Below, piece by piece: positions 18,766-41,504 of a DNA stretch of 64,000 nt (position 1 is its first letter; each line of letters starts with the position of its first letter). The notes under the pieces were generated by a model, which was not told where the DNA came from, made no database searches, and saw only the letters and a list, made by a program, of their open reading frames with translations. This DNA comes from Flavobacteriales bacterium. Its GTDB lineage: Bacteria > Bacteroidota > Bacteroidia > Flavobacteriales_G > JALEGO01. The position numbers were made by a program, and so were the translations under genes. The stretch covers positions 6,469 to 70,468 of the forward strand of contig JAHDHZ010000006.1 in the NCBI GenBank assembly GCA_020631045.1. The letters are read 5' to 3'.

Positions 18766-21700
18766 CTAGTGAGAAATTAGTTTTTTAATAATTGGCCCTT
18801 GGCTTGTTTGAATAATTAAGCTGTAAATGCCGCTGTTTAATTGGGTTTGTATCTGTTTGTCTACAATTAAGTTATGGTTTGTGTAAACGCGTTTTGCTAA
18901 TCCATCAAAAATGTCAATGCTCAATATGTTTTTGTGCTTAAGCGCAGTTAAATCAAGGTTGAACATTCCGTCATTGCTTGGGTTAGGATAGACCATAATT
19001 GCATCGCTTATTGTTTTTAAATCAATACTGTTGGGCGCGGCAATTGTAATGGTACATACATCTGAGAAATTACCCCACTCGCCGTTGATTTTAACAGCTA
19101 CAGTTACTTCATAGAGTACTTCTGTTTCAGCGCTGTCTAACCAAGTGAATTGAAAGTCATTGCTTGGTATAAGTCTTGTATATTCTTGTGTAGTGCCAGT
19201 TTGAGTGTTGGTGATGCTCCATTTGTAATCTTCAGCTCCCGTAATAGGGTCAGCATATAGGTAATCTCCCATATTTACAAGCACTATATTACACATTGAA
19301 TCTATGACTCCTGTTGTTGCAATCGAATTACTGGCTTCAATGTGAAGAAGGCAAGTGTCACTGTATTGGCCGTAGTTTGTGCCGATGTGCGCGCGAACTC
19401 TAACCTGATAGGTTGTGCCATTTGAAATTCCTTGAACAGTATCTAATTGCAAGAAAGGAGCTGCACTTGAAGCCTGAGTAGGATTTCCGTTTAAGTCTGT
19501 AAACAACCATTCATATTCATCTGCTCCGGCAACAACCTCTGCTGAGATGATGTCTGAAAGTGAATTTATGGTATCATTGCAAAGTGCTGCAATTAAGCCA
19601 GTATTTTGGTTTTGGGGAGTTGAGTTTCCTGAACTTGTATCTACTGCAATTTCAAGGTTGATGGTATCAGCGCACACCCCATTTGCAGTAGTGTCAATGA
19701 CAATGAACTCATAATTTCCGGCAGTTAATGCATTGATGAAAATAGAATCTTGATCAACAATTGCAGCAGCTTGCATGCCGTTTTGTAGAATGCCAAAACC
19801 TGATGCTGAAGCAGTATTTGAAACAGCAAGAGTTACTGTTGCATCAGAAGCACTGATGCTTGATTCATAAGTGGTGTCAGCACTTAGAATCGAGAAATTA
19901 CATGGAGTGCTTCCGAAATTGGTAGTGGTAATTGTACAAAATAAGCCTAAGTTAAACTCAGCCCAAGAGCAAGGAGCAACAAAAGCTCGAACAAACACAT
20001 CGTAGGTGGTGTTTGGTAAAATCCCGCTCACAGTATCAATTTGTAGTGTGTTGTCATTTGACAGACTTGTAATCGTGTCTGTACCGTTGACAAACATAAA
20101 TTCATGCATGGTTGATCCTGCAACAGGATTGCCAAACGGAATAAATTTATTGGCACTATCAACAGCCATGATGTTGTTGGCACTTGATGACCCACAAACG
20201 GTTAAGTCAAGAATGGAACTGTTTACAGGTTGAGGTGCACACCCTGTGTCGATGGCAATAGCCAGTAAGGTGTCTGCGCAACTACTGTCGTCTATTACAA
20301 TCACATTATAAAGACCCTCACTTATATTAGAAATAGTCAAAACATTTGATGCAACACTAAATGCCGCGGATAAAAGAGTCGTGCCATTGGTGTCTACTGA
20401 GATGTTGCCATTTGCCCCAGATAGGTTTATTTCTATTGCGCCATCTGAAGCCCCTTGCATGCTTACGGGAGTGTGGTTGCCTTCGGTGATTGATAAATTA
20501 CAATTGAAGGTAGATGTTTGTGGGGTGTAAATTGTACAGCTAGTTCCGTTGCTAGTTGTGTCGCCATCAATAATTGCTTTTAATGAGAAGGTATAGCTGT
20601 CATTTTCATTAAAAAAACTTGCATGATCACTCATGTTGAAAAAATTATTTGAAAACGTAGAAAAACTCGTGTCACTCATGTCAGAAGCCTGAATCACTTC
20701 CCATAAATAAAGAATGGTTGATCCATTAGGGCCATATGGTTGAATGGTAGTTATATCTTGGTTTAGGGAATCTAATGTGTCATTACAAAATAATGAACTG
20801 ATTTGAGGCCCTGTAATCAAATTTAAAGGTGTTGAAATAATACAAGTATCGCCAAAATCAGAAGTGTCTCCATCAACAATTGCTCTTAACGTAAATTCAT
20901 ATGTTTGCCCTTCACTAAAATAGGCAGAGTGGTCAGACACATTGAAGAAGTTATTTGAAAAAGTTTCAAAAACAGTATCGTTTGCTTGCCCCAATTCACT
21001 TACGTGCCATAAGTAGAGTATTGAGTTTGGTGCAGGAACAATTGGTTGGTAAGGTTGTATGGTAGTAATGTCTTGAGAAAGAGAGTCTAGTGTGTCAGAG
21101 CAAAAAGAAGTTGTTATAGAAGGTCCTTGTAAAAGAGCAGTCCCGGGAGTTGTTATTAAACAAGTGTCGCCTGTTAGGGTTGTGTCTCCATCAATCACAG
21201 CATGAAGAAATACTTCGTAAGTTGTGGCTTCATTAAAAAAGGTTGGATAGTCTGATAACTTAATAAAGTTAGTTGTAAATGTCGGAATAACCGTATCTGA
21301 AGTAGAACCCAACTCTTGCGCATGCCAAAAATATAAAATAATATTTGCGGGTGGATTTACAGGTCCGTAAGGTTGTTCTGTTGTTATTTCTTGGTTTAAA
21401 GAATCAAGTGTGTTTGAGCAAAAGTCTTGATTAACGCTCGGGCCTGGTAGTTGATTTGATTCAACAGAGGGAGTGAATAAAGTACATGAATTTACTGAGT
21501 TGTTAGCAGTGCCACCTTGATATCCTCTGATGGTTACAATATACTCAGTTCCAGGAAAAGAATTGAAGGCATCAAATAAGGCTCTACTATTTTGAGTTCC
21601 AGTAAAATCATAGACTGTATCGCCTAAAGTTGTCGTAACAATCCAACTGACAGAATCATGTCCTAAAAGGTTTATGGTTGTTTGTTGAGTAAGGGTGTCG

Positions 21701-25524: not shown

Positions 25525-28500
25525 TTACTTAATGATCAGCAGTTTGCTTTCTTTTTGAGTGTTTTGCTGTACTAAAATTGTGTATACTCCAGTTGAAAGG
25601 TGGCTAGGTAAATCGATTGATTTGGCTTTCGTAGAGCTTGAAAATACTTCTTGCATGCTTGCATTGTAAATCATGATATTTTTGTGATTTTCATTTGTAA
25701 AACGAATTGAAGAAGCACTTCCCGCAACAGATGGGTTAGGATAAATTGATTCAATGATGCTACTTGTATTGTTGAGCCATTGATTCGAGGTAGTAAAATC
25801 TGAAGGGGTAGTGACTTGGCAGTGTGATCCGTATTCAGTGATGCGGCCATTAATTTGAGCTTTTACGCGAAGTTCGTAGGTGGTGGCACTCTGAGCATTT
25901 TCAAGCCAAATGAATGTAAAGTCATTTTGATTGACATCTCTGATGTATTCTTCTACTTCTAGGGTTTGTCTGTTGGTGATTTGCCAAATGTATTTTTCAG
26001 CTCCACTTAGCTCATTGCACTCTATGAAGTCAGTGATGCGATCAAGAGTTTGTCCGCAAAATTCTTGTTTTACTTCAGTTGTAGGTGCTGAAGGAGTGGT
26101 GATCGCGCAAGAGGTGCCGTAAGTTTGCCAAGCATTGTTGATTCTAGCTTTTACAGAAATCTGATAGGTGCTGGAGTATTGTAATTCATTGACATCATCT
26201 AAGACCAATAAGTTACTTTGAGTGGCTCTTGGGTGCTCAATGACTTGACCATCTGAAGTGATGAATCTCCACTTATACTCTTGAGCATTTGTAAGAGCAT
26301 TGCACTGAATATGATCTGTGAAACTTGAAAGTGTAGTGCCGCAATATGCTGCTTGAACCTCTGTTGTTAAGGCAGGAGGAGCAGGCGTGGTAATAGAACA
26401 AGATGCAGCATACCCCCCCCAAACATTGTTTGATTGAATTTTAACGCGCATGTGATAAGTAGCATCAAACTCAATACCTGCTTGGTTAACAAGATTTATA
26501 GCATTATTTGTGCTTAAAACATATTGAATACTTTGATCAGGATAAGTGATTTCAAACATATATTGTTGAGCACTGTTGATTGGCGTGCAATAAATTAACT
26601 CATCAATTGCATTTAAAAGAGTGTTGCACTGACTGTGGTGGATTTCTGTAGTTGCAATCTGCACTGTTCCTGCGTCAATCGAAACAGACTTTACATCTGA
26701 GCAATTGTTGTTGTCAGTAACTGTTGCGGTGTATGTTGCAGGAGCTAGATTAGAAATACTGCCAGTGTTTGCGCCATTAGACCAGTTGTAGGTGTAAGGA
26801 ACTGATCCACCCGAAACGTTAAGACTTACAGATCCATCAGAAGCACCTTGAGTGGTTTCATTGGTAGAAGAAATGCTTACAGAGAAGTTTTGGCAAGGGT
26901 CATTGCCTGCGTTTACAGAAACAGACTTTACATCTGAGCAATTGTTGTTGTCAGTAACTGTTGCGGTGTATGTTGCAGGAGCTAGATTAGAAATACTGCC
27001 AGTGTTTGCGCCATTAGACCAGTTGTAGGTGTAAGGAACTGATCCACCCGAAACGTTAAGACTTACAGATCCATCAGAAGCACCTTGAGTGGTTTCATTG
27101 GTAGAAGAAATGCTTACAGAGAAGTTTTGGCAAGGGTCATTGCCTGCGTTTACAGAAACAGACTTTACCTCAGAACAATTATTGTTGTCAGTAACAGTCG
27201 CTGTATAAGTAGCTGGCGCTAGATTAGAAATACTGGCAGTGTTTGCGCCATTAGACCAGTTGTAGGTGTAAGGAGCTGATCCACCCGAAACGTTAAGACT
27301 TGCAGATCCGTCAGAAGCACCTTGAGTGGTTTCATTGGCAGAAGAAATGCTTACAGAGAAGTTTTGGCAAGGGTCGCTGCCTGCTTGAATCGTGAAGTTT
27401 TCAGTAGTAAGACATGAAAAAGCATCATAAACACTTACAGAATAGTTGTTGGGAGAAAGATTTTGAAGGCTTTGTTGGGTAGCGCCGTTAGACCAGTTAT
27501 AGGTGTAAGGGGCTGATCCGCCTGAAATACTAACACTCGCAGATCCGTCAGAAGCGCCCTGAATGGTTTCATTGGTGTAAGAAACAAGTAGCGTGTTTTG
27601 GCATGCAGGAGTGCTCAACTGGCAAGTGTTGCCAAACTCTGACCATGCGTTGTTGACCATGCTGCGTACCTTAACGAGATAGGTTTGGTTGTATGTGATG
27701 TTTTGAATTGAATTTAATGAGAAATTATTTGAAGATTGAGTTAAAACGTCATGTGGTGAGCCGTTGGTGTTGAGTATGTGAAATTCGTATTGACTTGCAT
27801 TGCTTACTGGGGTGCACTGAATAGTCTGTTGCATGCTTGAAGCTGTTGAGTTACAAAAGTTTTGAGTAAGTTGAGTTGTGGCAATAGGGTCTGGTTGACT
27901 TGAGCCATAAAACACAACTGAATAATCTTCGGTTTCTCCCATTTCAGGATTGTAACAAGCAGAACTGATGGAGTTGTTGCTCTTGTCAGAGATGACGCGC
28001 ATTCTTAAAAATTGATTTTCAGTTAGGTTGCTTGGAGTGGCGATGCTGCCAGTATGCAGGGTTTTGTTTTGGCTAGAGAATACCTCTTCTGAAGCATCAG
28101 AGAAATCACCATCATTGTTGTAGTCAATAAAGACTTTAATGTTTTCTGTGTTGATGCCATTTTTAATGCTAATAGAATAAGTTGATGTTTTTTCTAGTGC
28201 TGTAAAATAAAAGCAGGTTCTGTCGTTGTATCCGCCGTCTCCAGAGGTACTTAAAGAACTTACATCTAATGTGTTTAGGGTGACGTTTCGAATGCCGTAA
28301 CCAAAGTAATTGTTGGTGTTTGTTGTGGTTGTGAGGCAAGCTTGTGCGGGATTGGTGTTGTTGGATGGAGCAATTAAGGCAGATGAGCTGATCAGTCCTG
28401 AGCGCTCAGTAAGTATGGCTGCTCTCATGCGATCTTTTTGACCTTGTGTAAAGTTAGTTTGACAAGCATCGGAGGAGTAAGAAAGAAAGTTTGAAGAGAT

Positions 28501-29406
28501 TTCGCTTAAATCTCCACCATCACAGCTGTTTGAGCCGCTTGCGCAGCCGTAATCTCTTTTGTGTCTTCTTGTGTCGCTTACGCAATCACCATTTGAGCCA
28601 CAGTCTGAATCGGTAGGGCATCTTAATGTGCCGTCATTAGTAAGGTCTCCCTGAAAAGTGTGGTATAATCCAAAGGCATGCCCCAGTTCGTGAATGACTG
28701 TGATGTTGTGATTTGTGTAAGATTTTAGGTTGTACCCCTTGGTTTGGTTAGGGTCGTATCCAAAAGCATTGTAAAGAATTACTGCTCCGTCATTGCTGCT
28801 GTAAACCGGCGGAAGATAGGCGAATCCTTGTGTGCCTGAAGCACCGTCATTGTCGTTGATTTCACTAACAATCCAAATGTTATAGTAAATTTCTTTGGGC
28901 CATTTACTTAAATCTTTAATCTCGTTTTCATTATCTGCAGAGCCGTAATACACTAGACCAACATTTTGATAATTTGAAGTGTTTGAGGCGTTAATTCTGT
29001 TGATTCCATTTGTGCTGTTGCAGTTTGGATCTCTTTTGGCCAATTCAAATCGAATCAAAGTTTCGACACTTTGTGAAGAGTAGTTGCCACTGTAGGCATC
29101 ATTCAGAGATTGAACTGCACTTTGAATTTGAGCAGTAGAGATGTTAGATCCTTGACCAACAGGTTCTCCGTTGTGCATGATGTGTACTACTAGCGGAATG
29201 GTAAGTGTGTCTTGATTTGATTTTTGCTGAGTACTTAAAAGTGTGTTGTTTATTTTTTTATGATATTCTTTGACAAGATTTGAAAAGTCTGGTCTTCTAA
29301 GTAGTTCATTAAATATGTGATCGCTACCGCATTGCTCGTGCTGTTGAGCTTGTGTGAATTGCGTGAATAGCAGCAGTGCTGCAAAAAGTGTTGTTAAGCG
29401 GTTCAT
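25525..29406 (-). CDS. secreted M43-like (cytophagalysin/pappalysin-type) zinc metalloprotease with GEVED-type domain, SprB-type repeats, Cys-bracketed modules and T9SS type A sorting domain
   Basis: 1293 aa with a signal peptide. It has the metzincin motif HELGHAFGLYHTF (HExxHxxGxxH), GETEDYSV, four SprB-type repeats (QGASDGSxSxxVSGGSxPYTYNWSNG), five Cys-bracketed modules, and the C-terminus IYPNPSVAGSASSIRF...GVYTILVQQNTQKESKLLIIK. Confidence 0.8.
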   Translation of the reverse strand: MNRLTTLFAALLLFTQFTQAQQHEQCGSDHIFNELLRRPDFSNLVKEYHKKINNTLLSTQQKSNQDTLTIPLVVHIMHNGEPVGQGSNISTAQIQSAVQSLNDAYSGNYSSQSVETLIRFELAKRDPNCNSTNGINRINASNTSNYQNVGLVYYGSADNENEIKDLSKWPKEIYYNIWIVSEINDNDGASGTQGFAYLPPVYSSNDGAVILYNAFGYDPNQTKGYNLKSYTNHNITVIHELGHAFGLYHTFQGDLTNDGTLRCPTDSDCGSNGDCVSDTRRHKRDYGCASGSNSCDGGDLSEISSNFLSYSSDACQTNFTQGQKDRMRAAILTERSGLISSSALIAPSNNTNPAQACLTTTTNTNNYFGYGIRNVTLNTLDVSSLSTSGDGGYNDRTCFYFTALEKTSTYSISIKNGINTENIKVFIDYNNDGDFSDASEEVFSSQNKTLHTGSIATPSNLTENQFLRMRVISDKSNNSISSACYNPEMGETEDYSVVFYGSSQPDPIATTQLTQNFCNSTASSMQQTIQCTPVSNASQYEFHILNTNGSPHDVLTQSSNNFSLNSIQNITYNQTYLVKVRSMVNNAWSEFGNTCQLSTPACQNTLLVSYTNETIQGASDGSASVSISGGSAPYTYNWSNGATQQSLQNLSPNNYSVSVYDAFSCLTTENFTIQAGSDPCQNFSVSISSANETTQGASDGSASLNVSGGSAPYTYNWSNGANTASISNLAPATYTATVTDNNNCSEVKSVSVNAGNDPCQNFSVSISSTNETTQGASDGSVSLNVSGGSVPYTYNWSNGANTGSISNLAPATYTATVTDNNNCSDVKSVSVNAGNDPCQNFSVSISSTNETTQGASDGSVSLNVSGGSVPYTYNWSNGANTGSISNLAPATYTATVTDNNNCSDVKSVSIDAGTVQIATTEIHHSQCNTLLNAIDELIYCTPINSAQQYMFEITYPDQSIQYVLSTNNAINLVNQAGIEFDATYHMRVKIQSNNVWGGYAASCSITTPAPPALTTEVQAAYCGTTLSSFTDHIQCNALTNAQEYKWRFITSDGQVIEHPRATQSNLLVLDDVNELQYSSTYQISVKARINNAWQTYGTSCAITTPSAPTTEVKQEFCGQTLDRITDFIECNELSGAEKYIWQITNRQTLEVEEYIRDVNQNDFTFIWLENAQSATTYELRVKAQINGRITEYGSHCQVTTPSDFTTSNQWLNNTSSIIESIYPNPSVAGSASSIRFTNENHKNIMIYNASMQEVFSSSTKAKSIDLPSHLSTGVYTILVQQNTQKESKLLIIK
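26681..27391. repeat. in-frame 237-bp (79-codon) tandem repeat, three full units; units 1 and 2 identical
   Basis: 26681-26917 and 26918-27154 read identically base for base by eye. 27155-27391 is a diverged third unit, and a fourth more diverged unit follows to ~27600. All lie inside the metalloprotease CDS. Confidence 0.9.
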
Positions 29407-30832: not shown

Positions 30833-31399
30833 ATGAAAGAGAAGTGGTTTTTAAACTTATTTGTTGCTTTGAGCTTCTCATTTGTCTGTCTGCATTTCTT
30901 TTTTTCTGGCATTTACTTAACTGATGGCAAATATACGCCCTTTGCTTTGAATGCTTGGGTTTATCGCTATGTGCAGTTGGGGTTTTATCAAGATTGGCGA
31001 TTGTTTGCCCCTGAAGCTCCTTCTTGTCATGTAGGTTTTGTTTATGAATTAGATTCTAATAAAGTGAGTGATCACTTATTTTTAGGTAAAACCTACTTTA
31101 AGTCGATTGCCTTAAATCCTTTGAGTAGTAAAGGCATGCAGTACAGGGTAGTTCAGGCTTTGTCAAGAAATATGTTAAAAGCACACCATATAGTTCAAAA
31201 TTTACCTCAAAATGAGCGACTGAATTATCTATTAAAAGACCAGGCGGTCAAAAAGGCACTAAAACTTATTAAAAAAGAACACAAGACAGCAAAATCTGTT
31301 CGATTTACTTATTTATGTGCACAATTCGATGATTCTTTAAATTTAGATTACAGTTTAAGTACCGATAAACAAACTTTTATATGGTTGCCCATTGACTAG
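30833..31399 (+). CDS. DUF5819/SdpA-like membrane-anchored protein (partner of the following HTTM-like protein)
   Basis: 188 aa with an N-terminal TM helix. The motif FYQDWRLFAPEAP is one I associate from memory with DUF5819/SdpA-family partners of HTTM proteins. It overlaps the next gene by 8 nt. Confidence 0.5.
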   Translation: MKEKWFLNLFVALSFSFVCLHFFFSGIYLTDGKYTPFALNAWVYRYVQLGFYQDWRLFAPEAPSCHVGFVYELDSNKVSDHLFLGKTYFKSIALNPLSSKGMQYRVVQALSRNMLKAHHIVQNLPQNERLNYLLKDQAVKKALKLIKKEHKTAKSVRFTYLCAQFDDSLNLDYSLSTDKQTFIWLPID

Positions 31400-32234
31400 A
31401 GCTTTAACATATTATTTTTTTTGGTTTCAAAGACTCGCATATACAGCTTTGTTGATCTTTTTTGCCTACACACTAATTGATGTAGACTTTTTCTATTTTG
31501 ATCAAACACTCTTGAATCAAACTAATTTTGTTCAAGGTGTTTTGTATCAGTTTAGCCATCAGCTAAAAGATGCAAACCCTTTTAAGATATGGGTTTTTAT
31601 TTTAGTGTATGCATCAGCTTTGATTTATGGGATAATTGTAAAAGCTCATTTTTTTCATCGGCTATTAGTTTGGTTCTTTACCCTTCAGCTTTTCAGCTTG
31701 CTTGCCGAAGTGTTGACAGGAGGGCACAACTTGATGTTGATCTTACTGTTCTTTCATATTTTTTTCTTTTACTCAGAAAAGCAAGCTCATCAGAAAGTGA
31801 GTCGCGTGATGTGGTGGGGAGCTAAAAATCAGTTTTTGTGGATGTATGCTTGGTCGTTGTATTTTAAGTTAAAGGGAGAAGATTGGATGAGTGGAAGGGC
31901 TCTTGAAATTGTTTTTAGCGATAAGATTTATAGTGTAGATTGGGTTACTCAGATAGTACAGTATTTAAATCTCACTGAACTATTTACCTATTTGATACTG
32001 TTCTATCATGTTATTTTTATTGTGTACTTGAGTCTTGATTTATTTTTTAGACGAAGGCCTTTCAAGAACTTGGTCTTCATGTTAGGGGTGAGCTTTCACT
32101 TGAGCATTGCCCTTGTGGTAGGCTTGCCAGATTTTAGTTTGTTTGTATTTGCTGGTTATGTGTTGGTTTTTGCTCAAGATAGGTATATCCTACCAAAATA
32201 CAGATCAAAATTGGAGATTGTACAAAGCCCATAA
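31392..32234 (+). CDS. HTTM/SdpB-like polytopic membrane protein
   Basis: 280 aa with at least 6 TM helices. LTGGHNLMLILLFF and YFKLKGEDWMSGRALEIVF resemble HTTM (vitamin-K-carboxylase-related, SdpB-family) conserved blocks. Confidence 0.5.
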   Translation: MTRALTYYFFWFQRLAYTALLIFFAYTLIDVDFFYFDQTLLNQTNFVQGVLYQFSHQLKDANPFKIWVFILVYASALIYGIIVKAHFFHRLLVWFFTLQLFSLLAEVLTGGHNLMLILLFFHIFFFYSEKQAHQKVSRVMWWGAKNQFLWMYAWSLYFKLKGEDWMSGRALEIVFSDKIYSVDWVTQIVQYLNLTELFTYLILFYHVIFIVYLSLDLFFRRRPFKNLVFMLGVSFHLSIALVVGLPDFSLFVFAGYVLVFAQDRYILPKYRSKLEIVQSP

Positions 32235-32625
32235 TGTATCTGCTTAGTGGATAAAACTCAGTTGATTTAGACAAGCAGTATCCTAAGGTAAGTATGCCAA
32301 AAGCTAAAAGAGTAAGCCCTGTATAGATCACACTAATTTGTTTGAAGAAGTATTTTTTAAATAACAGCCAATGTATCGATAAGGCACATAGATAATACAA
32401 CAAAGAGAATACAAGGGTTAAGAGATATTTGCCGTAGTAAAGTTGAAGATAAGAAAGTCCTTGAAACAAGTCTTGAGATGTTTGGTTGAAGTAAGTATGG
32501 TTGTTGTTGTATAAAAAGGCGAGTTGATAGTTTAAGTGAACAAATAAGAAGTCTCTTAAAAAACCCAGAACAATAATAAAGGAGAGTAAAACTAAGATTG
32601 AAATTTTTTTACCCATAAATACCAC
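32134..32625 (-). CDS. exosortase F system-associated membrane protein
   Basis: 163 aa with four TM helices, immediately 3' of and overlapping the XrtF-like gene. Its size and topology fit the family that always neighbours XrtF. An alternative ATG lies at 32616. Confidence 0.6.
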   Translation of the reverse strand: MVFMGKKISILVLLSFIIVLGFLRDFLFVHLNYQLAFLYNNNHTYFNQTSQDLFQGLSYLQLYYGKYLLTLVFSLLYYLCALSIHWLLFKKYFFKQISVIYTGLTLLAFGILTLGYCLSKSTEFYPLSRYIMGFVQSPILICILVGYTYLEQKPTHNQQIQTN

Positions 32626-33155
32626 AAAAAGAAGATAAATGCATAAACGATAATCGTAAAGGTGTAGGTATGGTTAAAGTCAAGTGCCTGGGGCGCATAC
32701 AGAGAAATAAGACAAAGGGCACTGATGCGAAGAACATTGAGTAGGTGGATGAGTGTAATTCCTGAAATGATGTAGATCAGTTTGTGCCATATTTTACCAG
32801 GAAAAGCAATAATAAAACCTGTAAAAAGAGCAAAAAGAGCAATGCCATTACAATTATCGCCAATCCAAACGCCATGAGAGCCATCTATGCCAAGGGTTAC
32901 AATTCCTGTGTCGTAACTGCTAAAATCAATTAATGTGTAGCCAATGCTTTTTAAAAAAAAGCTGCTGCATAAAGCTAAATTGTGAATGACAGCATCATCA
33001 AGAATTCTAGTTTGATGTAAGCAAACATCGTAAACAACATACCACAATAAGTAGATGATTAGACATTTGATTAAAAATAGCTTTGAAGCAGAAGTGTTGT
33101 TAAACACGTGTATTTTTTTCTCTTGAAAGTTTGTAGCCAGCTGCGAGCCCAACAA
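32592..33155 (-). CDS. xrtF: exosortase family protein XrtF
   Basis: 187 aa polytopic membrane protein. It has the exosortase catalytic-type motifs in the expected order: Cys in IGDNCNGIALFALF, Arg in LLNVLRISALCL, His in FNHTYTF. The short length is typical of the Flavobacteriia XrtF subclass. The start is uncertain, because the ORF overlaps the upstream small ORF by 56 nt. Confidence 0.7.
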   Translation of the reverse strand: MLGSQLATNFQEKKIHVFNNTSASKLFLIKCLIIYLLWYVVYDVCLHQTRILDDAVIHNLALCSSFFLKSIGYTLIDFSSYDTGIVTLGIDGSHGVWIGDNCNGIALFALFTGFIIAFPGKIWHKLIYIISGITLIHLLNVLRISALCLISLYAPQALDFNHTYTFTIIVYAFIFFLWYLWVKKFQS

Positions 33156-33324
33156 GTGCTAAAATGCCTGCTCCTCCGTCAATAGGAACGCAAGGTGGTG
33201 GCCAACAAGGAGGGGTTGATCCACCAGCCGGTGGTGGTGGTGGTGCAAACAGCTGCTTAGGCTGAAGTGCTGTAAAAGCAAGTGTCGCTATAAGTATGAA
33301 AATTATTTTTCTCAACGTTTGCAA
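33100..33324 (-). CDS. 74-aa secreted Pro/Cys-rich mini-protein with exosortase-type C-terminal sorting signal (PID-GG / TM helix / basic tail)
   Basis: TTG start. MQTLRKIIFILIATLAFTA|LQPKQLFAPPPPPAGGSTPPCWPPPCV-PIDGG-AGILALVGLAAGY-KLSREKNTRV reads as signal peptide, ~27-aa core, then the tripartite motif/TM/basic architecture of PEP-CTERM-class signals. It starts 9 nt after the upstream stop and lies directly 5' of xrtF. Confidence 0.6.
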   Translation of the reverse strand: MQTLRKIIFILIATLAFTALQPKQLFAPPPPPAGGSTPPCWPPPCVPIDGGAGILALVGLAAGYKLSREKNTRV

Positions 33325-33333: not shown

Positions 33334-36300
33334 TTAATGGTGAAATAGTTTCATGCTCTTTAGGAGTCTCTCACCTTGTTTAATTTCAATCAAGTAAATG
33401 CCAGATTGACTTGGCATTTGAAAAGAAATTTGAGCATTTTTTTGAATTTGATTAAAGTTTTTAGAACCTATAACTTGCCCAAGAGCATTGTATAAAGTAA
33501 ATGCAGTAGGAACGTTTGACCCAACTAAAGAAGTGATGCGCGTTTCATTTTCTAATTGCTGTAAAGTAAAATCTTTAGACAATACATCATTTAAACCGAC
33601 AGTAACATTTAAAGAAAGTGTTTGAGTGATTACATCGTCACATCCATTCTCATTGCTTGATACCAGACTAACTGTATATAAACCTGGAGCTTGGTAGGTT
33701 TGTGTAGGATCATCTACAGTTGAGGTGTTGCCGTTGCCAAAATCCCAAGCATAGGTAGTAGCTCCTTGCGAGGTGTTGTTAAATAAAATCTCTTCTCCAA
33801 CAATAAGGGTGTTTGTATCTGTATTGAACCCAGCAATTACTTGAGCAGGCTCTTCAATGGTGTAATTGTAATTTTTAACGCAGGCATTGGCATCTGTGAC
33901 TTGCAAGACATAAGAGCCTCCACTTAAATTAGAGAGAGAATCTCCTGATAAAGCACTGTTGCCCCAAGTAATAACGTAAGGGGTAATACCACCTGAAATA
34001 TTTAAATTGATGGCCCCATTTTGATCACCAAAACAAGATATATTTTCGATGGTTTCTTCAACTAAGAGCTCTGTAGGTGATGCAATTACAAAAGATTCAG
34101 TCTGGCTACACCCTGTCAATGTGTTGGTTAAGGTGATTTGATAATTGCCGTCAGTTAAGTTTGAAATTTGAGCAGTCGTATCTCCATTAGACCACCCATA
34201 GGTATATGTGGCTGAAGGATCTGTAGAGCTAACAGAAGCAGCACCTAAGGTTTGATCACTACATACATTGTTTGTAGTGATTACATCTTGTATCACTTCA
34301 GCTCCTTGGTTAATGGTTGCATTGGTGATGATCGAGCAGCCAGAGCTTGTCTCAGTAATGGTTACAAAATAAGTTGACGGAGAGAGATTGGTAAGTACAT
34401 CTCCTGTCTGGCCATTAGACCAAGCAAATGTTTTGCCTGTATTTCCGTTACTTGCCAAAACAGAGATGCTGCCGTTGTTTGCATCATAACAACTGATATC
34501 TTGAGTCGTAACTTGAGTTGAAAGCAATGAAAGTGGTGCGATGACTTCGATCAAGGCGGTTGACAAAGCTAGATTAGCATCTAATACCTCGACCTTGTAA
34601 ATGCCCTCTTCACTCAAAATAGTTGAATCTGTTGAGTTTGATGTAGTTTCAACTCGAAGGGTGTCGTTGTTTTCATCAATCCATGTAAAGGTATATGGTG
34701 CAACACCTGCCACTTGAACACTAGCCATACCATCATTTGAATTCGCACAAGTAGGTTGTGTTTGTGAAATATTCAAAGGACTCGTAATGTTTAAGAACAG
34801 TCTTCTTAACACAGTATCATTCTTGGTAAATGCATAAGCTTGACCTTCTGTGGTGATTTTTGTAAAAGTTCCTAAAATGGAATCTTCAAGGACAATATTC
34901 TTGTTTTGATTGGTGAAAGCTTCTAGATTATTAAAGGTGATTTGGTAGGTGTCAGTAGATGAAAGTGCTCCATTTCTTCTGTAAAAAACTAAAGGGATTC
35001 TAACGCTTGTTAAATTAGAGGGCAAAGCATTTAATTCAATGAATCTACCTTCGTTGAGCGTTGCGATGTTGATTTGATTGTTTTCATTGCCAAAATCTGA
35101 ATTTTCATGATTCCAGTCATATCCTACAGTTGATTGATCATTTAAGACAATCTGAGCCTCATCAATTCGCTGACCGCCATTTAAGTCTAAGTTAATGCTT
35201 AAGGTTGGAGTTTGAGTGCCTACAACTTTAACAGAATTGTAAGAATCAGCTGCCGCTGATTCAACTTTATCGCTTTCTTGAAAATCAATGCTGGCTGTAC
35301 CATCAACGGCCTGAACAAAAAAGGCTTCTCCTGAAGCAATGACATCTCCAGCACCATCGCCATTGTATGTTACATAATTTCCGCTGTTGTCGTTTTGTAG
35401 TACATAAATCGCTCCACCGTCAGCTCCGGTAATGTTAGACATATTCAAGCTGTCAACATATAGATGTGCTGCGTAAGGATTACCCAGTAAATTCCATCCA
35501 TCACCATAAGTGCATGCTCCTGCAGAGCTTGTAAACGAAAGTCCTGAAATAGAAACATCACCAGAGGCAGGGGTGCCTGAAGTTGTAATGGTATTTCCTG
35601 TATTGTCATAAATGTACCACCCAGAAGTACTTGTGGCGTGATTTAAACTTTGAGCAAACCCTGTTGGGGTAGCGTAATCACACATGGCTTCATCCCAGTA
35701 TGAAATAGAAACAAAAGAACTTGCAGGGTCTTCACTGTCAGGAAATCCGCTAGTATACGTATCGTTTGCCCACTGACCAACATCTGCTGAAGTTACTTGA
35801 GGAGCTAGTGTATACCAGTGTGCAGAATCATCTTCATTTAAAAAGCGTTCAGCGATTAAGTTGCCAGAAAAAGGTGTAGATGGAGCAGCGCCTAAATTAC
35901 CGATTACGGCAGTACCTGTTGCATTTGACTTGAGATAAACACTGCCAGATAAATTAAAGGTTCCGTTTTCAACATCTAATACATTATAGACGTTAAGAAC
36001 AGCTCCCGCCCCGCAAGACAAACCTCCACCTGTATTGTCTAAGAGAATGTTATAAACATTGGTAGTGTCTCCGTCAATGGTCTGCGCCATAGTTGTGCTG
36101 TTGAAACGAATTCTTGAACCATCTGTATAATTAAACCCAGAAGAACCAGCATTGTTTAACCAATTACCTTGCACTGAAAAGTGTTTTTCAGCCCCATTCA
36201 AAGTGCTGCCTGTTTCAATTGAAACATCTCCGAAAGACAAGCTGTCATGTCCAGAATTTAAGTTTAATGTCGTATTGTTGTTGATTTGTACAGCACCTAA

Positions 36301-37605
36301 AAAGCTAAGACCTTCAATGTTTTGAGAAGATCCTAAAAAGCGAATGGTATCAGCGTTTGATCCGTTAAAGGTTCCTAAATCTTTGAAGTTTCCGTTTATA
36401 GTAAATCCTTGATTGTAAGAAAACACACCGTTAGTATCTACTAAAAATTCATTTGTTGTAACATCAGAGCTGGCATCTAAAACAACCCCCCCAACAACAT
36501 TTGTGTTTGACACTTTGAACAATCCATCAAACGTAGAAGTGCCAAATACTGTTTGAGTACCCGTGCCTACAAAGTCAAAAGTGTCTGTGGTAAGTAAATT
36601 TAAAGTGCCTTGATTATAAAAATCATTATTTAGATAAATATTGTTGTTGTTAGAATTTAAAATTCCGCCAGAAGCAATGCGAAGATCACCTAAAATTGAC
36701 GAGGCTTCAACATCAGTGCTCAAGTTTAAGCCAGAAGCATTTGAAACATATAAGTCATGATATTCAAAAGTTGAAACATGGCTGAACGATTGAGTTGCTG
36801 ATCCGTTGTAGTAAAAAGAAGAGGTATTTGATGCGTCAGCATTAATAGTTGCTCCATTTACAACAGTAAGCGTTCCATTTAAAAACACAGTAGCATCTGC
36901 GGTCTGCATATCAAGGGTTAAAGATGAAGCTGGTGCAGCAGATGGATTCGTGAAGCTTAGATTGTTGACTATAAGAGTGTCATTTACATCAATAGTAACA
37001 GAAGATCCACTACCGACAATAGTTGTTGCAAGTTGACTAGAAATAGTTGCTTGATCGTTAACATTTAAGCTAACATTTCCTCCGCTAATGCCTATAAGTA
37101 CTAAATTACTTGCGACATTTAAATCACCCGATACATTCCAAGTAATTACCGTGCCTGATTGTGCAAATAGACTGTTGTTTCCTGAGGCTAAATTTAAATT
37201 CATCTCGCCGTTCTGGTCTATAGTAGTATTGCCTGATGCTAGATTGCCACCAAAAGAACCTGCTACATTTACAACACCATTATTTGTGAAAATCAATGCT
37301 GCGCCAACTCCTGATGTTTGTTGAATAGTAACAGCGCCATTTATATTCAGCGTATCACCTGCAGAGACCGTAACTAGGTGAAAAAATCCGCCATTGATGG
37401 TTAGGTTGTTGCATTCAGCATTTTCTGATGTAGTAATAAAATGGTCTGCATTAATTATAACATTGTCTGCAGGGCCAGGAATACATCCGCAATCCCAAGA
37501 ATCTTCAGAGCTCCAATCAGTATCAATACCAGTTGAGTTGATTTGGGCAACAACAATGCTTTGTATTGTTAGGGTAAGGGCGAAAAAAGTAAATAATTTC
37601 TTCAT
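33334..37605 (-). CDS. giant secreted adhesin-like protein: beta-helix-like N-terminal region, SprB-type repeats, PKD-like domain, T9SS type A-like C-terminal domain
   Basis: 1423 aa with a signal peptide. The ~600-aa N/G/T/S-rich region has a short repetitive strand pattern. SprB-type units are present (CANSNDGMASVQVAGVAPYTFTWID; CYDANNGSISVLASNG; CFGDQNGAINLNISGGITPYVITWG), plus the PKD-like YAWDFGNGNTSTVDDPTQTYQAPGLYTVSLV. The C-terminus is FTLYNALGQVIGSKNF...GIYLIEIKQGERLLKSMKLFHH. Confidence 0.75.
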   Translation of the reverse strand: MKKLFTFFALTLTIQSIVVAQINSTGIDTDWSSEDSWDCGCIPGPADNVIINADHFITTSENAECNNLTINGGFFHLVTVSAGDTLNINGAVTIQQTSGVGAALIFTNNGVVNVAGSFGGNLASGNTTIDQNGEMNLNLASGNNSLFAQSGTVITWNVSGDLNVASNLVLIGISGGNVSLNVNDQATISSQLATTIVGSGSSVTIDVNDTLIVNNLSFTNPSAAPASSLTLDMQTADATVFLNGTLTVVNGATINADASNTSSFYYNGSATQSFSHVSTFEYHDLYVSNASGLNLSTDVEASSILGDLRIASGGILNSNNNNIYLNNDFYNQGTLNLLTTDTFDFVGTGTQTVFGTSTFDGLFKVSNTNVVGGVVLDASSDVTTNEFLVDTNGVFSYNQGFTINGNFKDLGTFNGSNADTIRFLGSSQNIEGLSFLGAVQINNNTTLNLNSGHDSLSFGDVSIETGSTLNGAEKHFSVQGNWLNNAGSSGFNYTDGSRIRFNSTTMAQTIDGDTTNVYNILLDNTGGGLSCGAGAVLNVYNVLDVENGTFNLSGSVYLKSNATGTAVIGNLGAAPSTPFSGNLIAERFLNEDDSAHWYTLAPQVTSADVGQWANDTYTSGFPDSEDPASSFVSISYWDEAMCDYATPTGFAQSLNHATSTSGWYIYDNTGNTITTSGTPASGDVSISGLSFTSSAGACTYGDGWNLLGNPYAAHLYVDSLNMSNITGADGGAIYVLQNDNSGNYVTYNGDGAGDVIASGEAFFVQAVDGTASIDFQESDKVESAAADSYNSVKVVGTQTPTLSINLDLNGGQRIDEAQIVLNDQSTVGYDWNHENSDFGNENNQINIATLNEGRFIELNALPSNLTSVRIPLVFYRRNGALSSTDTYQITFNNLEAFTNQNKNIVLEDSILGTFTKITTEGQAYAFTKNDTVLRRLFLNITSPLNISQTQPTCANSNDGMASVQVAGVAPYTFTWIDENNDTLRVETTSNSTDSTILSEEGIYKVEVLDANLALSTALIEVIAPLSLLSTQVTTQDISCYDANNGSISVLASNGNTGKTFAWSNGQTGDVLTNLSPSTYFVTITETSSGCSIITNATINQGAEVIQDVITTNNVCSDQTLGAASVSSTDPSATYTYGWSNGDTTAQISNLTDGNYQITLTNTLTGCSQTESFVIASPTELLVEETIENISCFGDQNGAINLNISGGITPYVITWGNSALSGDSLSNLSGGSYVLQVTDANACVKNYNYTIEEPAQVIAGFNTDTNTLIVGEEILFNNTSQGATTYAWDFGNGNTSTVDDPTQTYQAPGLYTVSLVSSNENGCDDVITQTLSLNVTVGLNDVLSKDFTLQQLENETRITSLVGSNVPTAFTLYNALGQVIGSKNFNQIQKNAQISFQMPSQSGIYLIEIKQGERLLKSMKLFHH

Positions 37606-37609
37606 GTGA

Positions 37610-38179
37610 TTATAGGTTAAGGAGTTGTTTTTTTAGCGTTTCGTCTACAGAATTTGGACCAAGCCAAACGCGCAACAATGCTTTTTTAAACGCTGGTTTT
37701 TCAATGGTCTTTTTAAGTGTGTTGTTGATGTAGAATTCAAGGCCTTTTTCAGGACTGTATTTAAGATTACAATGATCGCCTTTGCTTAAGTTAGAGCTTT
37801 CAAATACGCCAATAAAACTATTTATTTCTTTTTCAAGAGAACTGATGTCTCCGTTCATGGCTTTGATGAACCCTTCTTTTGTTGCTTCTGCCATTTTTTC
37901 TCCCGTAATTAAAGAAGAGACAATGGTAATAGACATCACAAAGGAACTATTGGCATTGATGATGTTCGTTGCATTGTTGTCTCTTTTATTTAAATACAAT
38001 CCTGCGACATAAAGATCTAAAAACCATTTTTCTCTAAGGCCTGCGCCATTCAGTACAAGTGTTTCGCCGTTGTAGGTCACTTTTTCATCAAAACGAATGC
38101 CTTCAACAGTTTTTTGTGCAAGACCACATTCGCAAATCAGAGAAAGTGCTATAAATAGTGTGATGATGTGTGATTTCAT
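37610..38179 (-). CDS. chalcone-isomerase-like family protein (secreted)
   Basis: VEGIRFDEKVTYNGETLVLNGAGLREKWFLDLYVAGLYL...FKKALLRVWLGPNSVDETLKKQLL matches the bacterial chalcone-isomerase-like family pattern. The ATG at 38179 (MKSHIITLFIALSL, a signal peptide) is preferred over 38200. Confidence 0.75.
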   Translation of the reverse strand: MKSHIITLFIALSLICECGLAQKTVEGIRFDEKVTYNGETLVLNGAGLREKWFLDLYVAGLYLNKRDNNATNIINANSSFVMSITIVSSLITGEKMAEATKEGFIKAMNGDISSLEKEINSFIGVFESSNLSKGDHCNLKYSPEKGLEFYINNTLKKTIEKPAFKKALLRVWLGPNSVDETLKKQLLNL

Positions 38180-38255
38180 ACTTAGTTTTTTGATTAACAC
38201 AATGAACCGAGACTAAGATATAAAGATTTTTGAAATACAAGTCTATTGCAAAGAG

Positions 38256-41200
38256 CTATTTTATAAGCTGTACATAGCCTGTTTGGCGAATGGTTTCACC
38301 ATTTAAGTCTTTGTACTTTATTTGCCATAAGTATAAACCCTTATCACACGTTCTTTGTTTTAAGTCATGGCCAGTCCACTGAAATTCTAAATCTGACGAT
38401 TCATATACTAGATTTGACCATCTATTGTAGATTTCAATTGAAAAGCTTGAAGTGTCAATACCACAAGACTCCATGTTAAAGGCATCGTTTAAGAAATCTT
38501 CATTCGGAGAAAATGCGGTAGGAATAAATAAGTGTTGTTTTTGTTCTAGTCTAATGATTTTTGAAGTGCTATCGGAGCAACCAGAATCACTTGAAACAAT
38601 GAGTTTGACTTCAAATTCACTGCCTTGAAGTTCATCTAGATTTGCAGTAAACTGTTCTTGATCAGATTCAATTGTTTGGTTGTTGTTTGCTAGAGTTGAT
38701 TCAATCATCCACTCAAAATCAGAACTTAATAAAGAAGTGTTTTCAAGAAGAATGTTTTGGTTGAATTCATCTAACGTATGTGCTTGTAGTGTGTAATTAA
38801 AACCTGCAGTAGGGCTTTCAAATACACGCACAAAGCTAGGTTTAATGAGCGTGTCGTAACATGAATTCCCATATTCGAGAGCTAGGCCAACATCATAAAT
38901 CCCAGGATTTTGAAAAGTAAATACAGTAGAATCACAAGCCCCACCAATAGTAGCGATAGAGTCAATTATCCACACACATTGCGTGAAACCTAAAATAGAT
39001 AAATCGGTGTTGTTTGTTAGATGAGTTTCAAGTGGAGCGCATCCATTTTGTAAAGAGCTTGTAAAGTCAAAATTTGGAATTTCAAAATATTCAAACACAA
39101 AGGTGAGTGTATCTTCTGTTGAGCATCCATCTGAAATCACTACATCATAAAAATCTTGATCGGGGAAACTCCCTTGAGCTTGAATCTGTTCGATTTGATT
39201 GTTGCTTTGGTTGTGAATCCATAAGTAGTTTAAGGTAGAGTCAGGGTGTCCGCCAAAGCCTTCTGCAGTGTAATTAAATATAGCCCCGTTGCAGGTGTTG
39301 ATCAATAAGCTGTCTGCACTCGTAATAGGAGCATGCAAATCAATGCATATGATTTCACTTTGATCTGAGCACCCATTTGCATCAGTTATTTCAAGACCAT
39401 AACATAAAGCTGTGGTGTCATTGGTAGCAATCATTTCACTTGTCTGACCGTTATTCCATAAATAACTAAAGGGCATGGTTCCGTTTTGAATATTGCCCAT
39501 TAAATCAAGGCTAGATCCAAAACACAATGTAGTGTCAGAGTAATTAAGTGATACATTGGGTGGATTGATGAATTCTATAGCCAGCCCCTCTAGAACAGTA
39601 TCACATGCATTGCCATCGGTAACGGTTAAGCTGTATAGGCCTGTGTCTAGATTTATGATGTTGTTAGATGTAGCACCCGTATTCCATAAATAAGAAAGAG
39701 GTGGGTTCACATTATTTAAATTCATGACCTGTAGACTTCCACTAGGAGCAGTACAACTTGAATTTTGTAGATCTAAATCAAAAGTAAGCGAAGGAACAAA
39801 TGAAACAGAAAAAGTAGAATCAAGTGTGCATCCTTTAGCATCAGTAATGCTAACCGTATAATTGCCCTGACAAATAGAAAATAAAGTGTCGGTATTCACA
39901 AATGGCAAAGGGCTCCACTGAACTTGAAAAGGAGCAAATGATCCTGTAGGGCTCACCCAAGCTTTTGCATTGCAAGAACCATTTTTACACGTAACTGGGA
40001 GGGTTTTTAAATTAGGTGTAATCTGATTTGTGTCAAGTAACTCAATTTCAATACTGTCATAGCATTGTTGGGCACTTTGGGCAACAACCAAATAAGAACC
40101 AGCAAAAAGATTTGAAAAAGTATTACTAGTCTGCCAGTTCAATCCACTGTCAATTGAGTAGTTTGTAGTATTTGTACTTTGAATAGAAATTTCTCCAGAG
40201 CTTTCTTCAAAACAAATGGGAGATGTGACAACTGTTGTATCGATTAAATCAATCGGAGATTCGTAAAAAAAAGAATCTACATAGGTGCATGAAGGGCTTT
40301 GATTATAAGATAAGTAAAACCAAGTGTCTTGGTCAATAGAAGAAAGCTTTAGCGAAGCGTTGTTTGGTGTATTTATTGTGAATCCAGGATTGTTTTCACT
40401 CCAATTAAAAGAAGTGTTTGGTAAAGCACTGAATCCAAATGCACTTTGAAGTGTAGCTGGTGTAGAAGGAATGTTAAACTTAGCAGCTGTTGAAAAATTA
40501 TTTGTACTGGTGAAATTTTGATTGATTGTTCCCGTTGAAATGATGTGAGTGGAGTCATAACAAAGAGGATTGTTGTTTTTAAAGGTGATGGTTGCTGAGT
40601 GTAGAATGCCATTTTCGGCAGTGCTATTCTCGCTATCAAGAATGCTCAATGACCAACCCGGGTCTTGAACATTGCAACCTATAAAACCGTTTGGTGTAGC
40701 ATTTGTAGGGTAGTTAGGCGAGGGGTTTGACGCATTCCACCAAGCGTGAGTACCTGAAGAGGGAATCGATAAGTCTGAACAATTGAATGAAAGTTGCGCT
40801 AAAGAATCAGAATGAAAACACAAATTTGTGGCATTTGTAATGGATGGAAAACATGCGGTTAAGGTGTTGATTGATGCTGCATCAGGATGTACAATAGCTG
40901 TGGGTGAGCCACAAGAAGCGGGGCCTTCGAGTACATAGCCAAGTTGGTAGGTTTCATCATGCGTTATGTTCAGGCATATTTCTATAGAAGTATTGGCATC
41001 ATATATAAAGTCATTTTTAGGAGGTAAATAGTAGGTGAAATTTTGAATTGCTGAAAATTCTGCTGCAATACAAAATGAATCACAGTCATTTTTTGAAACA
41101 TTGAATAAAGCTTTTGCTGTGTCTTGAAACACCCAAGCCTGATCACAAGCTAAAAAATTGCCATTTTCTGTAACAACGACTCTATACCCGCCCTCACTTA

Positions 41201-41504
41201 AATTACTAATACTACTTGAAGTGCTGTTTTCAATAGCGTACTGAGTGAATTTATTTAAAGTAGCATCGTATTTATACCAGTTGTAAGTTAGCGTGTTTGT
41301 TGTTGGATGTTGGGCGTTAAGCTCAAGAGATTGATTTTTACAAAAAATATAAATTGAATCTTCTAATTGCCCAGCAATATTGTAGTTGGTCAGGTATGCT
41401 TGAGTTGCGCTGGGTGCCGAAATTTGAGCTACTGATTCTAAGTAGGCTCCAAAGAAGCAAAACAATAAACTACAAACCAATACCCTTAATTGCATAACTT
41501 TCAA
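38256..41504 (-). CDS. large secreted protein with SprB-type repeats, PKD-like domains and T9SS type B (gliding-motility-associated) C-terminal sorting domain
   Basis: 1082 aa. The C-terminus LFIPTAFSPNEDFLNDAFNM...IEIYNRWSNLVYES...FQWTGHDL...GLYLWQIKYKDLNGETIRQTGYVQLIK is the type B CTD pattern. A degenerate P-domain-like block is present (CLNITHDETYQLGYVLEGPASCGSPTAIV...GWSLSILDSENSTAENGILHSATITF). The track start is a TTG at 41504, and the ATG at 41495 is equally plausible. Confidence 0.8.
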   Translation of the reverse strand: MKVMQLRVLVCSLLFCFFGAYLESVAQISAPSATQAYLTNYNIAGQLEDSIYIFCKNQSLELNAQHPTTNTLTYNWYKYDATLNKFTQYAIENSTSSSISNLSEGGYRVVVTENGNFLACDQAWVFQDTAKALFNVSKNDCDSFCIAAEFSAIQNFTYYLPPKNDFIYDANTSIEICLNITHDETYQLGYVLEGPASCGSPTAIVHPDAASINTLTACFPSITNATNLCFHSDSLAQLSFNCSDLSIPSSGTHAWWNASNPSPNYPTNATPNGFIGCNVQDPGWSLSILDSENSTAENGILHSATITFKNNNPLCYDSTHIISTGTINQNFTSTNNFSTAAKFNIPSTPATLQSAFGFSALPNTSFNWSENNPGFTINTPNNASLKLSSIDQDTWFYLSYNQSPSCTYVDSFFYESPIDLIDTTVVTSPICFEESSGEISIQSTNTTNYSIDSGLNWQTSNTFSNLFAGSYLVVAQSAQQCYDSIEIELLDTNQITPNLKTLPVTCKNGSCNAKAWVSPTGSFAPFQVQWSPLPFVNTDTLFSICQGNYTVSITDAKGCTLDSTFSVSFVPSLTFDLDLQNSSCTAPSGSLQVMNLNNVNPPLSYLWNTGATSNNIINLDTGLYSLTVTDGNACDTVLEGLAIEFINPPNVSLNYSDTTLCFGSSLDLMGNIQNGTMPFSYLWNNGQTSEMIATNDTTALCYGLEITDANGCSDQSEIICIDLHAPITSADSLLINTCNGAIFNYTAEGFGGHPDSTLNYLWIHNQSNNQIEQIQAQGSFPDQDFYDVVISDGCSTEDTLTFVFEYFEIPNFDFTSSLQNGCAPLETHLTNNTDLSILGFTQCVWIIDSIATIGGACDSTVFTFQNPGIYDVGLALEYGNSCYDTLIKPSFVRVFESPTAGFNYTLQAHTLDEFNQNILLENTSLLSSDFEWMIESTLANNNQTIESDQEQFTANLDELQGSEFEVKLIVSSDSGCSDSTSKIIRLEQKQHLFIPTAFSPNEDFLNDAFNMESCGIDTSSFSIEIYNRWSNLVYESSDLEFQWTGHDLKQRTCDKGLYLWQIKYKDLNGETIRQTGYVQLIK

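Follow-up and report, generated by a model that had tools for sequence, protein, structure and literature searches.

Organization of the cassette

A three-gene cassette of the exosortase type is located on the minus strand of a 64,000-nucleotide stretch of DNA (here called the window) from a Flavobacteriales bacterium (GenBank assembly GCA_020631045.1, contig JAHDHZ010000006.1, positions 6,469 to 70,468). It codes for a mini-protein of 74 amino acid residues with a predicted C-terminal sorting signal, an exosortase, and a third protein that is also predicted to lie in the membrane. The initial annotation of the window, made from the sequence alone, reported three overlapping open reading frames (ORFs) on this strand and a peptide with the motifs CWPPPC and PIDGG, and direct reading of the sequence confirms both. 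The longest ORFs are found at 33100-33324 (74 residues from a TTG codon), 32592-33155 (187 residues) and 32134-32625 (163 residues).

The starts of the second and third genes are probably internal to these frames. The homologue of the exosortase on the 99% identical Logan contig L083 (protein P0001; loci and contigs are cited here by L numbers) is called as 171 residues, and the window enzyme most likely begins likewise at GTG 33107 (32592-33107, -). With this start, the overlap of the mini-protein gene and the exosortase gene is 8 nucleotides (nt), GTGTTTAA, instead of 56 nt. For the third gene, ATG 32616 is the most probable start; from there it codes for 160 residues (32134-32616, -) and overlaps the stop codon of the exosortase gene by 25 nt. 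On the other side, the stop codon of a large gene for a type IX secretion system (T9SS) protein is found 9 nt upstream of the mini-protein start. A promoter and terminator scan gave no signal exceeding the shuffled background, and Rfam gave no RNA family within the window.

The mini-protein has the sequence MQTLRKIIFILIATLAFTALQPKQLFAPPPPPAGGSTPPCWPPPCVPIDGGAGILALVGLAAGYKLSREKNTRV. Its gene occupies 33100-33324 (-) when read from TTG 33324; TTG 33315 is an alternative start, and there is no in-frame ATG or GTG. The hydropathy scan gives two hydrophobic segments, one N-terminal (residues 7-19) and one C-terminal. The predicted signal-like N-terminus is followed by a run of five prolines, P28-P32, read directly as (CCA)4CCG (33229-33243, -), and then by the twin-cysteine loop C40-W-P-P-P-C45 (33190-33207, -), which stands immediately before the sorting motif P47-I-D-G-G51 (33172-33186, -). 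The last part (33103-33171, -) consists of a putative transmembrane (TM) helix, A52-Y64, and the tail KLSREKNTRV with its basic cluster between K65 and R73, as located by the hydropathy scan, direct reading and alignment of the family tails. This is the architecture of a PID-CTERM sorting signal.

The mini-protein is identical in the independent contig L083, where the only change is a synonymous one, CCA to CCT, in the proline run. In the nearest clade, L003, which has 59% identity in the exosortase, the mini-protein also begins with TTG, directly after a stop codon. This makes TTG a plausible, if unproven, start codon in the window. The proline run in L003 has the same length with different codons. 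The initial annotation was correct about the repeat itself, but its proposal that the repeat could vary in length finds no support: the length is Pro5 in all three and no variation was seen.

Assignment to exosortase X

The best-scoring exosortase subfamily in NCBIfam for the window enzyme is exosortase X (XrtX; NF046081), where it reaches 183 bits and so exceeds the cutoff of 170. The next-best model is exosortase F (XrtF; TIGR04128), with 93.3 bits. The signature TIGR04178 gives 55.8 bits. The Pfam family EpsH (PF09721) gives 20.7 bits, which is under its threshold of 25.7. The motifs GDNCNG, NVLRI and NHTY are present as first reported, and their Cys, Arg and His residues are invariant in an alignment of 30 XrtX homologues. 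In the numbering of the 171-residue protein these are C86 (32850-32852), R127 (32727-32729) and H146 (32670-32672), all on the minus strand. The enzyme has at least four hydrophobic segments by the hydropathy scan and no relative in the PDB by sequence.

The other two proteins fit the same system. The mini-protein matches the PID_CTERM model NF046080 over residues 46-67 with 26.9 bits, a marginal pass of the cutoff of 26. This is a model that the initial annotation had mentioned. The third protein has four hydrophobic segments, in agreement with the 4-TM protein first described, and matches the XrtX-associated family NF046082 with 51.4 bits (E 9e-14) over model positions 1-145 of 147. This score is below the cutoff of 75, and the assignment is made together with synteny and hydropathy. 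The XrtF-associated family TIGR04127, to which the third gene had been assigned, gave no match at E<=1.

The cassette had been taken for an XrtF system, and in that case the PID-tailed peptide would be the long-missing substrate of XrtF. It is important to note that the enzyme does pass the XrtF cutoff of 90 bits, and that many homologues carry the XrtF label in older annotations. However, XrtX outscores XrtF by about 90 bits here and likewise in ten further loci. Downstream of xrtX in the loci described below, NF046082 matches the neighboring gene in 57 of 61 cases, while TIGR04127 touches only one of the 61. Moreover, in Flavobacterium, a host of XrtF, no PID-like small ORF follows the genes of RemZ-like T9SS proteins (L084, L086). 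An XrtF system is thus very improbable, and the NCBIfam scores of the enzyme, the peptide and the third protein together assign the cassette to XrtX.

The members of this system are already curated in NCBIfam (NF046080, NF046081, NF046082) and Pfam (PF28310, PID_CTERM), and the NCBI names such proteins of about 70 residues. The dedicated mini-substrate, which had been considered undescribed, is therefore covered by existing families. For the PID-CTERM/XrtX system, the window cassette is an ordinary representative, though a divergent one. Its divergence is seen in the lowest tail score of the sample, the TTG start, the basic region GYKLSREK in place of the usual GGKK, and the associated protein below cutoff.

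Conservation of the mini-protein and its tail

For comparison, 82 XrtX loci, of which 2 come from genomes and 80 from metagenomes, were reduced to 69 non-redundant loci, 63 of which have at least 300 nt of upstream sequence. A small ORF on the same strand is found directly 5' of xrtX in 54 of these 63 loci (86%). The common gene order is mini-protein, xrtX, associated protein. The strong adjacency, and with it an exosortase cassette encoding its own dedicated mini-substrate in cis with a PID-GG, TM helix and basic cluster signal, holds well beyond the window. Ten xrtX genes were scored from loci in which the first motif scan gave no adjacent mini-protein. All ten score as XrtX (173-199 bits), and two of these loci do carry a mini-protein, as a variant directly upstream (L068) or 4 kb downstream (L076).

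The mini-proteins of the loci have a median length of 76 residues (range 68-90) and an N-terminal signal-like segment. The 15 residues before the first Cys consist of 35% Gly and 33% Pro. A C-x4-C pair, to which the loop in the window corresponds, is found in 47 of 58 locus-derived mini-proteins. The sorting motif has the form [IVM]P[IVL][DN]GG; it is PIDGG in 45 of the 58, and variants such as PVDGG and PLDGG occur in others. The motif is followed by a helix of the type [ILV]xxLxAAGxAxGG and then by KK and a short polar tail.

It is important to know whether this tail also occurs on other proteins. A profile hidden Markov model (HMM) of the tail only, built without the Cys pair, was run on 7,898 six-frame segments of the window and the 82 loci (507 kb). 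It matches mini-proteins only, and its sole match in the window is the 74-residue ORF, with 32 bits (E 3.6e-8). This is the lowest score; L068 has 32.4 bits and the others 37-59. There is about one mini-protein per locus. The same tail-only profile gave 3,157 matches at E<=10 among 5.8 billion proteins, and the best 120 were examined. All of these 120 have 35-76 residues and are flagged as PF28310 in precomputed annotation. Several, from Hugenholtzia roseola and from metagenome-assembled genomes (MAGs) of Sphingobacteriaceae and unclassified Bacteroidota, are named by the NCBI as PID-CTERM protein-sorting domain-containing proteins, and others, from MAGs of Marinilabiliaceae and Flavobacteriales, are hypothetical by name. 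Since the profile scores the tail only, a large protein with a good tail should reach the same rank. None is among the best 120, which argues that the PID signal is restricted essentially to mini-proteins. Many unrelated PID-tailed proteins elsewhere would have spoken against a dedicated substrate, and no large ones are found in the 507 kb or among the best 120 of the 3,157 matches.

These comparisons also bear on the possibility that the 74-residue ORF arose by chance or is the remnant of a decaying gene. The lack of an ATG or GTG start, the bare pass of NF046080, the weakest tail score and the atypical GYKLSREK would all fit such an explanation. However, the ORF is kept unchanged in the independent contig with its synonymous change, the closest clade retains both the TTG and the whole architecture, and position, strand and coupling agree with more than 50 other loci. 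The conservation of the ORF beside xrtX, together with the specificity of the tail HMM for mini-proteins, indicates that it is not a chance ORF, and we consider a remnant highly improbable.

The predicted exported part of the mini-protein

The part of the mini-protein that would be exported consists of 10-30 low-complexity residues across the family and is never a folded domain. The CWPPPC loop, which had been emphasized in the initial annotation, is common in the family without being a defining feature: of the best 120 database members, 94 carry two cysteines immediately ahead of the motif and 26 lack them. The members without Cys (about one fifth) have acidic Pro/Gly cores, some of only about 10 residues, for example QPDPGGDPDV. 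Mini-proteins of this kind are found at L088:6001-6207, L092:2976-3188 and L094:5001-5213, and those of L092 and L094 are located between a T9SS cargo gene and xrtX.

The small size, the leader-like N-terminus, the Cys pair capable of forming a loop and the dedicated membrane enzyme next to it could suggest a secreted signaling peptide or a product resembling the ribosomally synthesized and post-translationally modified peptides (RiPPs), with XrtX as the maturation protease. Nevertheless, the cassette contains no conserved genes for modification enzymes, exporters or receptors. The Pro/Gly core is free in length and composition and can lack Cys, unlike a ligand under the constraint of a receptor. 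This makes such a product improbable.

The N-terminal processing of the mini-protein deserves separate consideration. In most of the family the signal-peptidase site is an ordinary A-x-A, and the next residue is Q, G, A or S. The clade of the window (L003, L016, L025, L032, L057) has proline directly behind the apparent cleavage site, for example LFA-PPPPP or LYA-PPP (residues 27-32, 33229-33246 in the window). Proline at position +1 would be expected to prevent cleavage of that bond by signal peptidase I. The processing of the window mini-protein is for this reason uncertain, and in this clade the N-terminal helix could be kept or cut at another site.

A retained helix would be in keeping with a different role, in which the mini-protein is an uncleaved, stable membrane subunit or regulator of XrtX: a hairpin of two helices with a Pro/Gly loop in the periplasm, which could sit in the active site, control access to it, or bring in the neighboring T9SS protein. 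The tight coupling of the genes with the 8-nt overlap, the very short exported part in all members and the presence of about one mini-protein per locus are compatible with a subunit of this kind. On the other hand, the succession of motif, helix and basic cluster is the layout of a cleaved sorting signal, and the curators class PID-CTERM as a protein-sorting domain. The ordinary signal-peptidase sites (A-x-A before Q, G or A) of most members and the mini-proteins that are found away from xrtX also disagree with it. We regard an uncleaved subunit as unlikely, although it deserves more weight than a RiPP-like product.

The T9SS cargo gene upstream of the mini-protein

The large gene that precedes the mini-protein in the window (33334-37605, -) codes for a T9SS type A cargo protein of 1423 residues. 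Pfam and NCBIfam identify SprB repeats, a PKD domain and a type A C-terminal domain (CTD). The CTD model TIGR04183 (Por_Secre_tail) gives 26.7 bits with the whole protein (cutoff 23) and 34.3 bits with its last 120 residues, and the protein is homologous to the products of upstream genes at other XrtX loci. TIGR04183 matches 29 of 38 upstream neighbors encoded on the same strand. According to a local CTD HMM, 30 of the 47 assessable mini-protein loci carry a gene with this domain whose end lies -7 to +53 nt ahead of the start of the mini-protein; L068 is not counted solely through a mis-estimated start of its mini-protein. The CTD HMM matches 6 of about 170 other long ORFs. A large T9SS type A cargo gene thus directly precedes the mini-protein in some two thirds of loci. 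Besides the window, such large cargo proteins are found in L001, L010, L015, L016, L022, L032, L033 and L045, and further in L062, L065, L068, L076, L082, L088 and L092.

The large proteins upstream of mini-proteins are homologous to each other, and no Pfam or NCBIfam family covers the body of these proteins. They have in common a module of about 300 residues that lies directly ahead of the CTD and contains the motifs GWNLxGNPY, PGQGFWV and LED. A profile of this module, with the CTD excluded, matches the Flavobacterium johnsoniae proteins RemZ (residues 701-1025, E 7.5e-21) and RemA (residues 1078-1349, E 1.2e-19), using the sequences deposited with PDB entries 8gl8 and 8gl6. A profile that includes the CTD also matches them. 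Among all ORFs of at least 150 residues in the window and the loci, the module HMM matches only large proteins adjacent to mini-proteins, and these include 14 proteins that were not used for training. It has no match in the other five or more T9SS cargos of the window.

In the window protein, the family module HMM places the module at 34789-35766 (-), with the motifs GWNLLGNPY and GEAFFVQ; the alignment used to train this HMM included the window sequence. The window module alone gave no match to RemA or RemZ in a search of PDB sequences. An AlphaFold2 model of the RemA-like module was poor, with a predicted local distance difference test (pLDDT) value of 58.7, and a Foldseek search of the PDB yielded nothing meaningful (best TM score 0.18). 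In the window protein and in L049 the module is located in the middle of the chain and is followed by additional SprB and PKD domains. Cysteines of the module are not consistently conserved across the large proteins, and so offer no support for a cysteine that covaries with the mini-protein.

The pairing of the large protein and the mini-protein survives both permutation of the gene order and the location of xrtX elsewhere. L076 and L058 have xrtX first, then the associated gene and then the large T9SS gene; the mini-protein of L076 comes after the large gene, and the contig of L058 ends inside the large gene. In Hugenholtzia roseola (L088), a T9SS protein of more than 2000 residues with the module (E 2e-37) is followed by a mini-protein without Cys, and xrtX is not nearby. 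L092 contains in succession a large protein with the module, the mini-protein, xrtX, the associated gene, Wza, Wzc and a GT4 gene. In L094 a T9SS protein without the module is followed by the mini-protein and then by xrtX.

Four other T9SS cargo genes of the window were located at 18766-23118, 25525-29406, 38256-41504 and 48487-51327. Two of them code for proteins with type A tails, one of 1450 residues and one with M43 peptidase, GEVED and SprB domains, and two for proteins with type B CHU_C tails, one with SprB repeats and one with PKD, CUB and P domains. The RemA-like module is absent from all four. The RemZ-like genes of Flavobacterium are tandem paralogues (L084:255-8127; L086:4512-7317). 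Several of these paralogues are called as two genes (970 and 242, 946 and 243, and 510 and 438 residues), which suggests frameshifts or assembly errors in repetitive adhesin genes.

Genes of polysaccharide export adjoin several XrtX loci. They code for Wzc-like tyrosine kinases with a YGYGYG tail, a Wzx-like flippase, Wzt/Wzm, Wza and GT4 proteins, and are found as divergent upstream genes in L009, L014, L028, L058 and L076, and also at L090:233-5896 and L092:4508-8188. No polysaccharide-export genes flank the window cassette.

Proposed function of the cassette

The observations are best accounted for by a PID-CTERM/XrtX sorting cassette acting by the following pathway, to which we assign a probability of roughly 75%. 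The N-terminal signal-like segment suggests that the 74-residue protein would be exported by Sec. By its architecture, the C-terminal helix and basic tail would hold it in the inner membrane, with PIDGG at the periplasmic face. XrtX, a polytopic protein with the conserved Cys, Arg and His, would recognize the tripartite signal, cleave at or near PIDGG and so remove the helix. It would then transfer the remaining Pro/Gly-rich peptide of about 20-25 residues, which in this case carries the CWPPPC loop, to an acceptor in the envelope. The synteny of the 4-TM XrtX-associated protein suggests an accessory subunit. Cleavage and transfer are proposed by analogy with the archaeosortase A/PGF-CTERM and rhombosortase/GlyGly-CTERM systems.

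Because the exported part is so short and of low complexity throughout the family, the peptide itself would be the product. We infer that the substrate is not a cargo domain and that the peptide would serve as a tag, linker or anchor and not be displayed as a protein. The contiguity with T9SS cargo genes and the presence of Wza, Wzc and Wzx neighbors point to a role in the biology of the cell surface or of adhesins. Synteny thus suggests either the RemA-like T9SS protein or a surface polysaccharide as the partner of the peptide.

Several points weigh against this proposal. The window peptide is the weakest member of its family by both tail scores and needs a TTG start, its N-terminal processing is doubtful for the reason given above, and the third protein falls short of its family cutoff. 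About 14% of XrtX loci have no adjacent mini-protein, and some mini-proteins stand alone (L093). The link between the mini-protein and the T9SS protein is one of synteny, in a window that is generally rich in T9SS cargo genes. The cleavage and the transfer are modeled on other C-terminal sorting enzymes.

A more specific possibility is that the Pro/Gly peptide processed by XrtX is a dedicated covalent adaptor for the neighboring RemA/RemZ-like T9SS type A protein. In one variant, XrtX would load the peptide on a lipid or polysaccharide carrier, which would become the surface anchor of the adhesin. This would resemble Porphyromonas, where PorU attaches cargo to a linking sugar modified with an amino acid; T9SS type A cargo is joined to this sugar by an amide bond at its C-terminus (PMC7468200). 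In the other variant, XrtX could tag the adhesin or a component of the gliding track directly, with the twin cysteines taking part in disulfide exchange. This would be like the periplasmic C-tails of SprF and PorG, whose twin cysteines are disulfide-bonded to GldK in the gliding/T9SS track (PMC12635249). However, the motif in SprF is C-x-C in an outer-membrane protein, while that of the peptide is C-x4-C.

In addition, many mini-proteins would have an N-terminal Gln after cleavage of the signal peptide. By the "Q-rule" of Bacteroidetes, such a residue is likely cyclized, which argues against the free N-terminal amine as the acceptor. For these two reasons the adaptor is regarded as an improbable extension of the proposed pathway. 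If true, it would give a concrete function to exosortases of Bacteroidota and would explain the cell association of the type A substrate.

Comparison with other sorting systems

The agreement with the curated PID-CTERM/XrtX families extends from the scores of the enzyme and the peptide, both above cutoff, to size, architecture and gene order. The XrtF system of F. johnsoniae (TIGR04128 and TIGR04127; Fjoh_1448 and Fjoh_1449) likewise consists of a short Bacteroidota exosortase of about 170-190 residues followed by a small multi-TM partner. It is a distinct subfamily from the window enzyme by the difference of about 90 bits. Deletion of xrtF or Fjoh_1449 reduces the colonization of sand, greatly reduces biofilm and abolishes zorbs, as in the T9SS mutants porU and porZ, and the substrates of XrtF were still unknown in 2024 (PMC10936215).

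The PEP-CTERM/exosortase A (EpsH) system also has a tripartite signal and a polytopic enzyme with Cys and Arg, and it is frequently linked to exopolysaccharide loci (PMC7468200). The type of signal and of enzyme is shared with XrtX, and the Wza, Wzc and Wzx neighbors of XrtX loci echo the exopolysaccharide linkage. The differences are the PEP motif in place of PID-GG and the sub-threshold EpsH score of the window enzyme. In the work of Haft from 2006 and 2012, genomes with PEP-CTERM reportedly have many substrates, which are often large, while XrtX has essentially one, of about 70 residues.

Archaeosortase A (ArtA) removes the C-terminal helix of PGF-CTERM proteins, and their new C-terminus is attached to a lipid-containing moiety. 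Removal of the helix and attachment to a lipid-containing moiety are described for rhombosortase and GlyGly-CTERM proteins as well (PMC7468200). These two enzymes have been characterized by experiment and serve as the template for the mechanism proposed here. Their substrates are full-size proteins; that of XrtX has about 70 residues.

RemA, a gliding adhesin, and RemZ are T9SS type A substrates that share the pre-CTD module of about 300 residues and the type A CTD with the upstream large-protein family. They differ in their N-terminal regions, and in the window protein the module and the CTD are separated by SprB repeats and a PKD domain. The searchable literature contains no paper on "PID-CTERM", and "XrtX" yields unrelated papers only; a partnership of T9SS cargo carrying the RemA/RemZ module with the mini-protein was not found there either. 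The less expected result is therefore not the cassette, which is already curated, but its position: synteny statistics support that it adjoins the gene of a RemA-like secreted adhesin in many Bacteroidota.

To our knowledge, neither a substrate nor a function has been demonstrated for any exosortase of Bacteroidota. The simplest case for study is XrtX, with one enzyme, one substrate of about 70 residues and one accessory protein, and the mature product would be small enough for direct mass spectrometry. The pairing with RemA/RemZ-like cargo and the Wza/Wzc neighbors suggest where the acceptor could be sought. The pairing also links two systems of envelope sorting that are usually treated separately.

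Other neighboring genes

On the same strand as the large T9SS gene, 4 nt separate its start from the end of a chalcone-isomerase-like gene (PF16036, E 5e-49; 37610-38200, -), and the two may belong to the same transcription unit. On the other side of the cassette, a convergent ORF of 280 residues (31392-32234, +), with a weak match to the SdpB family, overlaps the XrtX-associated gene by 101 nt at its 3' end (32134-32234). This overlap is also called in L083. The preceding ORF (30833-31399) is weakly similar to DUF5819.

Genes for serine hydroxymethyltransferase and RelA/SpoT recur beside the PID mini-protein/XrtX loci of distant Bacteroidota (L009:4971-6257; L088:6366-8654 and 11178-12207; L090:7244-10784). 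This setting may represent an ancestral neighborhood.

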